Assembly: GCF_988242995.1 (NCBI RefSeq) | Contig: NZ_OZ547043.1 | Direction: 5' to 3' (one strand) | DNA: 64,000 nucleotides | Part shown: piece by piece, positions 12,001 through 16,566 of the stretch | Layout of the letters: each line of letters starts with the position of its first letter | Numbering within the stretch: the first letter of the stretch is position 1 | Program-made: the position numbers and the translations under genes | The notes under the pieces: generated by a model | The model's database searches: none | The model's input: the letters and a program-made list of their open reading frames with translations, nothing else | What the model was told of the DNA's origin: nothing

Positions 12001-13290
12001 ATACGGATGCACGACGAGCGGACGCACCACTACCATTACGACAGCCAGCACCGCCTGGTGTTCTACACGCGGATACAGCACGGCGAGCCACAGGTGGAGA
12101 GCCGCTACCTCTATGACCCGCTGGGCCGCCGGACGGGGAAACGGGTGTGGCGGCGGGAGCGTGACCTGACGGGGTGGATGTCGCTGTCGCGTAAACCGGA
12201 GGAGACCTGGTACGGGTGGGACGGTGACAGGCTGACGACGGTACAGACCGGCACCACGCGTATCCAGACGGTATACCAGCCGGGGAGCTTCACGCCGCTC
12301 ATCAGAATCGAAACAGAGAATGGTGAACAGGCGAAGGCGCGGCACCGGAGTCTGGCGGAGGTGTTGCAGGAGGACACGGGGGTGACGCTACCGGCGGAGC
12401 TGTCGGTGATGCTGGGGAGGCTGGAGCGGGAACTGCGCGCGGGTGCGGTGAGTGCGGAGAGTGAGGCATGGCTTCAGCAGTGCGGGCTGACGGCGGAACA
12501 GATGAAAAACCAGATGGAGGCGGAATACATCCCGGAGAGGACACTTCATCTTTACCACTGCGACCACCGGGGGCTGCCGCAGGCGCTCATCAGCCCGGAA
12601 GGGGAAACGGCGTGGCAGGGGGAGTATGACGAGTGGGGAAACCTGCTGGGCGAAACCAGCGCGCAGCAACTGCAACAGCCGTACCGTCTGCCGGGGCAGC
12701 AGTATGATGAGGAGTCGGGGCTGTACTATAACCGCAACCGGTACTATGACCCGTTGCAGGGGCGGTATATCACCCAGGATCCCATTGGGCTAAGAGGTGC
12801 ATGGAACCTGTATCAGTATCCATTGAATCCAACTACTAAGATAGATCCGTTGGGTCTCTCCGGAGAAGATTCCATAGAGCAGTCAGGTCCATCTTGGTTG
12901 ATTGCTGACCCCATGGATAAATACAGACAACAGGCAGTGATGGGTTTAACAAAATTGTGGGATGATACCTTTAGTCAAGAGAAGACTAAATGTTTACCTA
13001 CGACACCTGAAAACATCAGGATGGTTGTGGCCAACAGTCCCTTGTTGACAGTACAACAAAAAGTCTCAGTACCCGTAGTAGCTCACTACGTACAAATGCT
13101 GGAAGATGGTAGTGGAGCACCACCGGTTGATATGGATGGGAATGTGATTGTTAATGGTAATCACAGGATGGTTGCGGGTCTGTTATGTGATAAACTTCCT
13201 CCTGAGCGGCCAGGTACGCGTCCATTATCGGCACCACTATATCCGTTTAGCCAAATTTTTCCGGAGTTAGATGATTGGGGGAATAGATGA
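9079..13290 (+). CDS. rhsE: Rhs-family protein: YD-repeat core with a variable C-terminal toxin domain
   Basis: 1403-aa ORF starting [13 protein letters not shown]…; many YD/RHS repeats (…[12 protein letters not shown]…, …YEYDRYGQ…); core ends with the canonical …[31 protein letters not shown] (DPLGL at 12844-12858), followed by ~143 aa of unrelated AT-rich sequence; RBS aagga upstream. Confidence 0.9.
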
Positions 13291-13772
13291 TAAGAATCGC
13301 GTTTTTAATAACCAATAAATTTCTTGATATAGATAGTACCACTCTTGCTGGATATGATTTTAGCGGGATGGATCTACATCGTGCCATCCTCAATGGTTAT
13401 TGTCTTGATGGGGCGAAATTTGAAAATTCCCATTTAAGAAATGTAATGATTCAACATACATCAACTAGAAATGCTGTCTTTCGCAATGCGGCTCTGATGA
13501 ACGCTATTCTTAATAACTCAGATTTCACTGGAAGTGACTTTAGTAATTCAAGGTCAATAGGTGCAAACTTTGAGGGTGCTATATTAACTAATTCAACCTT
13601 TTGCAATGCAGACGTTAAAGATTCAAATTTTTCTGGTGCTGACTTATGTGGCGCTAATTTATTATGTGATAGATATGGCGATATAAATATAACAGGTGCA
13701 TTATTCGATAAAAACACCTCATGGTTAGAAGGTTTTGATCCTATAGCTCATGGGGCTATATTAAAAATATGA
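13287..13772 (+). CDS. ydcD: Pentapeptide-repeat protein, probable Rhs immunity protein
   Basis: 161-aa ORF whose ATG overlaps the rhsE stop (ATGA at 13287-13290); tandem A(D/N)LXX-type repeats (…[64 protein letters not shown]…); AT-rich like the rhsE tip. Confidence 0.75.
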
Positions 13773-14100: not shown

Positions 14101-15494
14101 ATGAAAGCCCACGCCCCACAAGGCTTTACCGGATGATGAGTTTTTAAACTACGACATTACTTTTACAGTAAAATCCATCATGTTGGTATTTTCTCTCGAA
14201 CAATTTGACGATCCACGGAAAGATCACGTAACGCTGCTTTTTTGTACTAGACAATTCGCATTTTATGTTTAACAATTGAGATATTCCTCATTACCTGAAG
14301 CTGTTTTTTATTGCGTATACATGATCAAATACTCCTTACATAATTAAGGAGAACAAAATGGAACTTAAAAAATTGATGGAACATATTTCTATTATCCCCG
14401 ATTACAGACAAGCCTGGAAAGTGGAACATAAATTTTCGGATATTCTACTGTTGACTATTTGTGCCGTTATTTCGGGTGCAGAAGGCTGGGAAGATATAGA
14501 GGATTTTGGGGAAACACATCTCGATTTTTTGAAGCAATATGGTGATTTTGATAATGGTATTCCTGTTCACGATACCATTGCCAGAGTTGTATCCTGTATC
14601 AGTCCTGCAAAATTTCACGAGTGCTTTATTAACTGGATGCGTGACTGCCATTCTTCAGATGATAAAGACGTCATCGCAATTGATGGAAAAACACTCCGGC
14701 ATTCTTATGACAAGAGTCGCCGCAAGGGAGCGATTCATGTCATTAGTGCGTTCTCAACAATGCACAGTCTGGTTATCGGACAGATCAGGACGGATGAGAA
14801 ATCCAATGAGATTACAGCTATTCCAGAACTTCTTAACATGCTGGATATTAAAGGAAAAATCATCACAACTGATGCGATGGGTTGCCAGAAAGATATTGCA
14901 GAGAAGATACAAAAACAGGGCGGTGATTATTTATTCGCTGTAAAAGGAAACCAGGGGCGGCTAAATAAAGCCTTCGAGGAAAAATTTCCGCTGAAAGAAT
15001 TAAATAATCCAGAGCATGACAGTTACGCAATTAGTGAAAAGAGTCACGGCAGAGAAGAAATCCGTCTTCACATTGTTTGCGATGTCCCTGATGAACTTAT
15101 TGATTTCACGTTTGAATGGAAAGGTCTGAAGAAATTATGCGTGGCAGTCTCCTTTCGGTCAATAATAGCAGAACAAAAGAAAGAGCCAGAAATGACGGTC
15201 AGATATTATATCAGTTCTGCTGATTTAACCGCAGAGAAGTTCGCCACAGCAATCCGAAACCACTGGCACGTGGAGAATAAGCTGCACTGGCGTCTGGACG
15301 TGGTAATGAATGAAGACGACTGCAAAATAAGAAGAGGAAATGCAGCAGAATTATTTTCAGGGATACGGCACATGGCTATTAATATTTTAACGAATGATAA
15401 GATATTTAAGGCAGGGTTAAGACGTAAGATGCGAAAAGCAGCCATGGACAGAAACTACCTGGCGTCAGTCCTTGCTGGGTGCGGGCTTTCGTAA
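14101..15494 (+). mobile_element. H-repeat (ISAs1-family) element, copy 2, approximate boundaries
   Basis: Leader 14101-14215 matches the copy-1 leader (atgaaagccc(g/a)cgccccacaag…cgacattacttttа-like block …caatttgac); the 3' end gcgggctttcg at 15481-15491 is inverted relative to the 5' end; contains an intact transposase ORF. Confidence 0.5.
14358..15494 (+). CDS. ydcC: H-repeat-associated protein (ISAs1-family DDE transposase), intact
   Basis: 378-aa ORF; DDE-type transposase features; paralogous to the interrupted ORF at 7521..8657; RBS aaggag upstream. Confidence 0.85.
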
Positions 15495-15539
15495 TCTTGC
15501 CCTGCGCCAAAGATTCCATATAATAATATTAAGGTTGTT

Positions 15540-16175
15540 ATGAATAAAGGTAATAGATTACAACAGTTAGAAGATGCGTGTCGTGATATTATTAAAATTA
15601 ACATGTGGTATGAACTCCCCGATTATGTATTTTTTTCAATATCTGACACCATCGATGGGACGAGTGATGAATTTGCAATAAATGTGTATAAAAATATCGA
15701 TAAAAGTCTTCTTGAAATATTATTGCATCCATCTGTTTTACTGTCAGTTGTTGAGTCCTTACAAAGTAATACTATAGCTGAGTATATCGTGAAATTGTCT
15801 GGAATAGAGATGAATTATGACGACTTGCTAATATCGGATGTTAAGTCATGTCTTTTTATCAACTATGGATTCAATAACAGTGAATCGGTTGCGCTATTTA
15901 ATAAGATTTGCCGCGAATTAAAAGACATTGTAAAATCATCAAGAGTACATATAGATCATGAGAAAGATATTTTTGATGGCCTTAATCAAATCTTGGCTTT
16001 TTCCGATAATAATAAACGTGAGTATTTTTTATATATAAAGGCATATTGGCTCAGTTTATACTTTTGTGAAATTTCACAGAACGTGAGAGAAAGAGATAAG
16101 TTGTCATTTTATTATAATGAATTTTCTGTCCGATTTCCTAATGTTGTCCTATATCCGTCATGCTACAAATTGTAA
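15540..16175 (+). CDS. Hypothetical protein (AT-rich orphan ORF next to the Rhs/H-rpt region)
   Basis: 211-aa ORF with an ATG start and aagg 5 nt upstream; very AT-rich; no family recognisable by eye; lies immediately 3' of the H-rpt element. Confidence 0.5.
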   Translation: MNKGNRLQQLEDACRDIIKINMWYELPDYVFFSISDTIDGTSDEFAINVYKNIDKSLLEILLHPSVLLSVVESLQSNTIAEYIVKLSGIEMNYDDLLISDVKSCLFINYGFNNSESVALFNKICRELKDIVKSSRVHIDHEKDIFDGLNQILAFSDNNKREYFLYIKAYWLSLYFCEISQNVRERDKLSFYYNEFSVRFPNVVLYPSCYKL

Positions 16176-16566
16176 GGCTTGGCACCTGAAATTCATTGTT
16201 AATTCGAGACGCTTGATTGTCCACTATATCAAAACAGTCATACCTCGGAATTTCTCACATTAGTCCATACGGTATTCAATTTTCGCAACTGTGCCCTGAA
16301 ATAAAAAACTGCAAAACTGCTTTTTCTTGACCTGTCCCAATCACGCAAGACTACTTTTAGTAGAGACCTCCAGCCATATCGATTTTAGTGCCGCCCGCGC
16401 ATTTTATACAAAACAGGGCTTTATCAATGAAGCTATAATACGCAATTACTATGATGTTGGTGAGGATAAATTAATCTTCACTAAAAATATGCAATCGTGA
16501 GATAAAATATGCTTTTAACTCATATTGAAACATTGCTTACGCAACTTCGTTGCTGCATATGATTCT

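Follow-up and report, generated by a model that had tools for sequence, protein, structure and literature searches.

A probable orphan immunity gene for EndoU RNase toxins at the edge of an Escherichia coli T6SS/Rhs island

We report an analysis of an AT-rich open reading frame (ORF) of 211 amino acids, located at positions 15540-16175 (+ strand) of a 64,000-nucleotide stretch of DNA that we refer to as the window, and we conclude, at a probability of about 0.78, that it is an orphan immunity gene from a family cognate to one subfamily of PF14436 EndoU RNases; that the protein is expressed, binds and neutralises such a toxin and protects the cell is what we infer. The immunity reading follows from the synteny of the homologues with EndoU domains, from a series of loci in which the toxin gene decays, from the faster divergence of the partner proteins, from their charge and cytosolic features and from the purifying selection acting on them. 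An earlier note on this DNA had suggested either an orphan immunity protein or another defence-related gene. The former proposal is supported by homologues that directly follow PF14436 domains in seven lineages and by the absence of the toxin from the window, and the latter, for which there is no PADLOC match, is unsupported.

The open reading frame, its family and its island

The ORF runs from an ATG start to a TAA stop, and a Shine-Dalgarno-like AAGG (15530-15533, +) lies six bases 5' of the ATG, in a column that is invariant in an alignment of six toxin-immunity junction loci. Upstream, with 45 nt between its stop codon and the start of the ORF, is an ISAs1-family (H-rpt, ydcC-like) transposase gene of 378 aa (14358-15494, +), which we regard as an intact H-rpt/ydcC-type gene because the NCBIfam ISAs1 transposase model (NF033564, E 4.9e-125) covers it end to end. 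The GC content of the 211-aa ORF is 0.308 (30.8%) and its GC3 0.288, compared with a GC content of 0.51-0.52 for the flanking genes yddH, nhoA and yddE and a GC3 of 0.56 for nhoA. The description given in the earlier note, of a reading frame with an ATG start and a spaced aagg, placed directly 3' of an intact H-rpt transposase and more AT-rich than the flanking housekeeping genes, is thus borne out.

At 31% GC, arithmetic gives ~7.8% of random codons as stops, and the probability that 211 codons would be free of stops by chance is therefore ~4e-8. Searches of 5.8 billion and 1.8 billion proteins returned a family of ~25 clusters at 90% identity, confined to Enterobacterales, with members in E. 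coli, Shigella flexneri, E. albertii, Pseudocitrobacter faecalis, Superficieibacter, Morganella, Xenorhabdus, Proteus and metagenomes; identities within it drop to 26% and the alignment spans the whole protein. A scan of contigs by a narrow peptide pattern added just three further loci. Seven positions (C14, D39, Y50, L61, E72, Q75 and S76, the VESLQS motif included) are invariant across the family. Nei-Gojobori dN/dS ratios lie between 0.12 and 0.36 in all 15 pairs among six loci, which implies that the 211-aa protein is under purifying selection. The full-length homologues, these ratios and the low chance probability together indicate, from the sequence, that the ORF is a real gene and not a chance feature. 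The label of 'orphan ORF' that had been attached to it is apt as far as curated families are concerned, but the gene is not a true ORFan, being a member of this small Enterobacterales family.

The window covers the E. coli rhsE/ydcC region. Its genes are, in order, an mcbR/yncC-like GntR regulator, pqqU (yncD), yncE, ansP, a short GST fragment and a truncated ISAs1 gene, followed by a 1403-aa Rhs protein, an overlapping pentapeptide-repeat ORF, the intact ISAs1, the 211-aa ORF, yddH, nhoA, yddE and narV; the nhoA-yddE segment is 99% identical to E. coli chromosomes. A variable T6SS/Rhs island occupies the interval from yncG to yddH; it contains PAAR, VgrG, M35 peptidase and hypothetical genes in E. 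coli 042 and a VgrG together with a frameshifted Rhs in EC42405. The 211-aa ORF is the final island gene before yddH in the window, in E. coli 042 and in EC42405.

Other features of the island were also recorded. Its left border (6510-6923) bears a GST-like ORF of 137 aa in the place taken by the 205-aa yncG in E. coli 042, and the truncated ISAs1 transposase, at 7800-8657, is an ORF of 285 aa without the N-terminal 65 profile positions; with this copy on the left and the intact one on the right, the island is bracketed by ISAs1 copies. In the 1403-aa Rhs protein, the C-terminal tip that follows DPLGL (12860-13290) has no Pfam match at E values up to 10, and it holds a short motif that may resemble a ParB/Srx nuclease motif. 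The pentapeptide-repeat ORF that overlaps this tip (161 aa, Qnr/MfpA-like, 34.6% GC; 13287-13772) presumably encodes its immunity protein, and an immunity protein that mimics DNA would fit a toxin directed at DNA. To the right of the 211-aa ORF, a 57-codon ORF (16327-16500) is similar to the C-terminal end only of a GNAT/RimI-type acetyltransferase (NCBIfam TIGR01575, E 3e-4, profile positions 101-129 of 132) and is probably a gene remnant inside the 390-bp spacer before yddH. E. coli 042 has, with an ISAs1 fragment on one side and the orphan immunity gene on the other, a 186-aa hypothetical ORF, WP_000748591.1 (locus L001, 8116-8676), which gave no NCBIfam match and has no counterpart in the window; this ORF may itself be a second orphan immunity gene.

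EndoU toxin domains beside the homologues

In seven independent lineages the stop codon of a PF14436 (EndoU_bacteria) domain is followed, 3-16 nt later and on the same strand, by the start of a homologue of the 211-aa protein (26-62% identity), and the slot directly after a toxin domain is the position of an immunity gene. The delivery modules that carry the EndoU domain are of three kinds, namely T6SS PAAR-like effectors, VgrG-linked effectors with a Pyocin_S linker and Rhs tips.

The PAAR-like arrangement is found in Pseudocitrobacter faecalis (loci L003-L005), where the homologue (62% identity) lies 16 nt after the PF14436 ORF, with DUF2169 and a Tox-PAAR-like gene upstream. A Logan contig (L017) has the same layout with an intact effector of 388 aa, in which the Pfam EndoU domain occupies residues 272-384 (E 1.2e-14), and carries an ISAs1 transposase gene 3' of the homologue. 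In P. faecalis L003 (3217-4400) the effector is split into overlapping ORFs of 278 and 135 aa; the near-identical effector of L017 (3382-4548) is a single ORF of 388 aa, and the copy of the P. faecalis type strain therefore looks frameshifted.

In Morganella morganii (loci L012-L015) the homologue (33% identity) lies behind a 214-aa Pyocin_S-linker/EndoU ORF. VgrG, DUF4123 and a deaminase effector come first at this locus and are followed by an array of orphan toxin-immunity pairs to which these two ORFs belong; the pair after them consists of Colicin_D and Colicin_immun, a known toxin-immunity order. The array itself is long in M. morganii GCA_040560315.1 (L012, 3400-11100), where each of the orphan toxin tips, which comprise EndoU, Colicin_D and two of unknown family, bears a Pyocin_S-like linker and is followed by a small ORF, and for several of these presumed immunity ORFs Pfam gave no match.

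Rhs sequences accompany the homologue at other loci. In metagenome loci L009-L011 (26% identity) the order is an EndoU ORF, the homologue and then RHS-repeat fragments. In Xenorhabdus beddingii (L021; 32% identity) an orphan Rhs-CT tip of 175 aa, which starts with the Rhs core-end motif NPTGWVDPFGL (NPxxWVDPFGL) and ends in EndoU, precedes the homologue, and this locus answers in the affirmative the question, raised in the earlier note, of whether homologues elsewhere sit next to rhs-CT fragments. A further contig (L018) opens with the last 37 codons of the same EndoU toxin, after which comes the homologue, and in Shigella flexneri (L008; 52% identity) the homologue stands behind a VgrG fragment and an 88-aa EndoU C-terminal remnant that corresponds to toxin residues 50-135 (71% identity, tblastn E 1.4e-38).

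All cases have in common the toxin C-terminus GGTMTSG.Y.GVFIRV..D..G.GSIFP.N..QP-stop. Among 10 toxin-partner pairs, the toxin domains are 57-73% identical and the partner proteins 28-58%, and the divergence of the two is correlated (r = 0.67 over the 10 pairs, which are non-independent). A partner that diverges faster than its toxin is typical of immunity proteins.

Toxin loss and the condition of the window copy

No toxin came up in the window or at the E. coli loci when EndoU domains were used as tblastn queries, which makes the window copy an orphan. A blastn search with the Shigella EndoU remnant likewise found nothing in 5426 complete E. coli genomes, and any selective benefit of the gene would therefore hinge on foreign attackers. 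The loci can be arranged by stage of decay, from effector plus immunity gene, through toxin remnant plus immunity gene and immunity gene alone, to truncated immunity gene. A frameshifted remnant of the 3' end of the toxin, still alignable at the nucleotide level, precedes the homologue in E. albertii; what is left of the toxin-immunity junction in E. coli 042, EC42405 and the window is no more than its final 25-35 nt, the AAGG included; and Superficieibacter has a lone copy that is shortened at its C-terminus. In the window the junction is represented by a conserved upstream stretch (15505-15539, +), common to E. coli 042 and EC42405 and homologous to the junction of toxin stop and immunity start, which can hold no more than a few codons of the toxin gene that was lost.

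The gene is carried by 237 of the 5426 complete E. coli genomes, always as a single chromosomal copy at a fixed site beside yddH, and a search of plasmids had as its sole match a chromosome filed as a plasmid. It is of full length in 193 of the 237 carriers, mostly ~99% identical to the window copy, and truncated in 44. The truncated carriers retain, at the same locus, only bases 388-636 (or 441-636), that is the 3' 39%, and this fragment is unannotated.

The end of the IS is at ~15504, which places it 35 nt from the ATG of the ORF. In EC42405 (L002, 9091-9306) and in E. coli 042, the ISAs1 end is separated from the ORF by ~167 bp of AT-rich DNA that the window lacks (at 15495-15510); the missing segment begins exactly at the ISAs1 end, which identifies the event as an IS-adjacent deletion. 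Three residues set the window allele apart from the common E. coli allele; two of these, Y124C and H160R, are private changes at family-conserved positions. In view of the 167-bp upstream loss and these two substitutions, the window copy may be less well expressed or partly impaired. A promoter-like sequence, TTGCCC-16-TATAAT (15497-15524, +; 10 of 12 matches), spans the IS junction and is a weak lead as a candidate hybrid promoter, given that a promoter scan of the region gave 7 sites against 5.7 expected from shuffles, which is not significant, and no significant terminator. The idea that the gene is a passenger of ISAs1 was considered and rejected, E. coli 042 having the gene with no complete IS adjacent to it and the identity of the window to E. 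coli 042 starting at 15505.

These observations bear on the best surviving alternative, a non-functional relic, by which the gene would descend from an immunity gene but would here be unexpressed or bind nothing and be drifting to loss. We consider this plausible for the window copy, though less likely than not, and it would leave the identity of the gene unchanged. The absent toxin, the 44 E. coli carriers that hold a 3' fragment only, the private Y124C and H160R and the loss of 167 bp beside the IS are all compatible with drift towards loss, as is the outcome of the promoter and terminator scans. However, the ORF is intact, which argues against long-standing pseudogenisation of the window copy; dN/dS within E. 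coli is 0.24-0.36, a range resting on just 6-10 differences; the gene persists at full length in the 193 genomes noted above; and either read-through from the IS transposase or the promoter-like site at the junction could drive expression.

The protein, its proposed action and known systems

The N-terminus of the protein, MNKGNRLQQLEDACRD, is polar and charged; neither the sequence nor the model points to a signal peptide or a transmembrane segment. An AlphaFold2 model, built from a 17-row alignment, predicts a soluble, all-helical bundle of 12 helices (mean pLDDT 88.2, pTM 0.84). The lack of export or membrane features and the soluble predicted structure would fit an RNase target in the cytosol. 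The window protein has a pI of 4.94, and acidity is a feature of the whole family (pI 4.7-5.1, net charge -8 to -15); the partner EndoU domains mostly have a basic pI, of 8-10. When the L017 toxin and immunity protein were modelled by AlphaFold2 as a fusion, toxin-(GGGGS)6-immunity, from a 12-row paired alignment and scored on pLDDT and pTM only, the pTM was 0.51 and the toxin half had a pLDDT <50, so that the model lends no weight to an interface between the two.

That an all-helical protein which always accompanies the same toxin subfamily might be a T6SS accessory protein, an adaptor or chaperone for EndoU effectors, is conceivable since all-helical proteins can be chaperones, but we consider it very improbable. 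In those loci known adaptor genes (DUF4123, DUF2169, PAAR-like) already stand 5' of the effector, and the gene follows the toxin domain whichever delivery module (PAAR-like, Pyocin_S linker or Rhs) is used. Furthermore, it outlives the toxin alone in E. coli, E. albertii and Superficieibacter, and in Morganella the homologue fills the slot that is held by Colicin_immun in the neighbouring pair.

Searches of curated libraries with the 211-aa protein were blank, in agreement with the earlier note, which recognised no family: there was no match in Pfam (E up to 10) or NCBIfam even at permissive cut-offs, and none to any PADLOC family at E up to 1. Matches to PHROGs were marginal only, to families without known function, the best having an E value of 0.002 over 60 residues. 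An anti-phage defence gene or unrelated island cargo, which the AT-richness, the island-edge position and the patchy distribution might bring to mind, is a reading to which we give even less credence than to an accessory role, on account of these PADLOC and PHROG results and of a consistent partner that is an interbacterial toxin, not a phage-sensing module. Searches of PDB sequences, by single sequence and by profile, returned nothing meaningful, and Foldseek with the model against AFDB50 found only members of the protein's own family, with no match of the fold to a known immunity protein; the sensitive homology and structure searches that had been proposed have thus yielded homologues, and fold relatives only among these. 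The name 'aminopeptidase', given to some family members in RefSeq and UniRef, is the sole support for such an activity and we dismiss it almost entirely, there being no Pfam or NCBIfam match, no HExxH motif and no peptidase among the PDB sequence or fold matches, while the two Foldseek rows so named lie outside the family with E values above 3. The naming is itself inconsistent, WP_105288505.1 and others being called 'aminopeptidase' and near-identical alleles 'hypothetical protein'. A literature search by the RefSeq and UniProt accessions of the family found no paper, and the family is undescribed, without a Pfam model and without a structural relative.

Returning to the immunity reading, we propose the following mode of action. 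In other Enterobacterales the EndoU domain forms the C-terminus of effectors encoded behind DUF2169/PAAR-like genes, of effectors behind VgrG/DUF4123 with a Pyocin_S-type linker, or of Rhs tips, and the immunity gene 3-16 nt downstream would allow producer cells to neutralise their own toxin. By analogy with characterised RNase toxin-immunity pairs, the acidic, all-helical protein would bind the toxin 1:1 in the cytoplasm, and tight binding would presumably block the basic RNA-binding face or the active-site face of the EndoU domain. In E. coli the toxin gene has been lost and the immunity gene kept at the right-hand edge of the yncG-yddH T6SS/Rhs island, where the orphan could protect the cell from EndoU effectors injected by other Enterobacterales; in the window, with ISAs1 and the ~167-bp deletion now abutting the gene, the copy may be weakly expressed or decaying. 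We suggest more tentatively, as something we would not rate the likelier outcome, that the family has a new all-helical immunity fold and that in the ~4% of E. coli that keep the gene without the toxin it still protects against EndoU-armed neighbours in the gut, for instance Pseudocitrobacter, Morganella, Proteus or Xenorhabdus-like attackers.

Immunity to EndoU toxins has precedents. CdiI(STECO31) is the immunity protein of an EndoU-fold CdiA-CT tRNase from E. coli STEC_O31 (PDB 5HKQ), an alpha/beta protein that neutralises a cytosolic RNase by direct binding (PMC9086364). The genes of the present family likewise directly follow a PF14436 EndoU domain at the homologue loci but, in contrast to the alpha/beta CdiI(STECO31), the 211-aa protein is predicted to be all-helical, and no similarity of sequence or fold to CdiI(STECO31) was found. 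The immunity families encoded beside Tox-EndoU include MafI, Imm28, SUKH/SMI1_KNR4 and Imm-SuFu (PMC3482391), and in Salmonella MafI is the partner of a PAAR-Rhs-EndoU effector (PMC10469887). The present family has the same genomic role, downstream of Tox-EndoU in polymorphic toxin loci; it lies outside MafI, Imm28, SUKH and Imm-SuFu, given the lack of any Pfam match at E up to 10, and it appears to be a further, undescribed EndoU partner family restricted to Enterobacterales.

Orphan immunity proteins have been reported to protect against non-self effectors (PMC10539506, PMC5361080, PMC12247911). The window gene resembles the orphan immunity genes and rhs orphan modules found in T6SS loci of E. 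coli, Salmonella, Serratia and Vibrio in being without an effector at the distal end of an island, AT-rich, flanked by an IS and patchy in distribution. However, a typical rhs orphan module keeps an rhs-CT fragment upstream, whereas in the window there is no toxin coding sequence beyond the junction and no PxxxxDPxGL motif, rhs core or CT upstream of the ORF, the IS end being 35 nt from the ATG; moreover, rhs orphan modules lie between the main rhs gene and the H-rpt element, and the window gene lies beyond that element. The combination of an rhs-CT and a toxin tip is present at the Xenorhabdus homologue locus (L021).

A review of 2023 lists four experimentally verified antibacterial EndoU toxins, none of them delivered by a T6SS (PMC9990079); if our reading is true, the toxin-immunity pair would be the first tractable T6SS EndoU system. 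It would also define a new immunity family for EndoU RNase toxins, give a function to a gene that RefSeq names 'hypothetical protein' or, baselessly, 'aminopeptidase', and provide, in the decay series, an illustration of T6SS/Rhs islands shedding toxins while keeping the antidotes. The result would improve annotation and predict which E. coli strains resist EndoU-armed competitors. The family is new but the kind of element is well known, and no new principle is revealed.

Two further sequences came to light in the family searches. A 401-aa relative (P0024; L016, 7001-8206), 34% identical over residues 73-255 and with extra N- and C-terminal regions, is encoded directly behind flgN in a flagellar cluster where no toxin is close by, which is a divergent context for the family. 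A 2.5-kb contig labelled 'MAG: Collinsella sp.' (L019, JAIJJM010000490.1) carries a copy of the E. coli gene at 99% identity and is most likely a binning contaminant.
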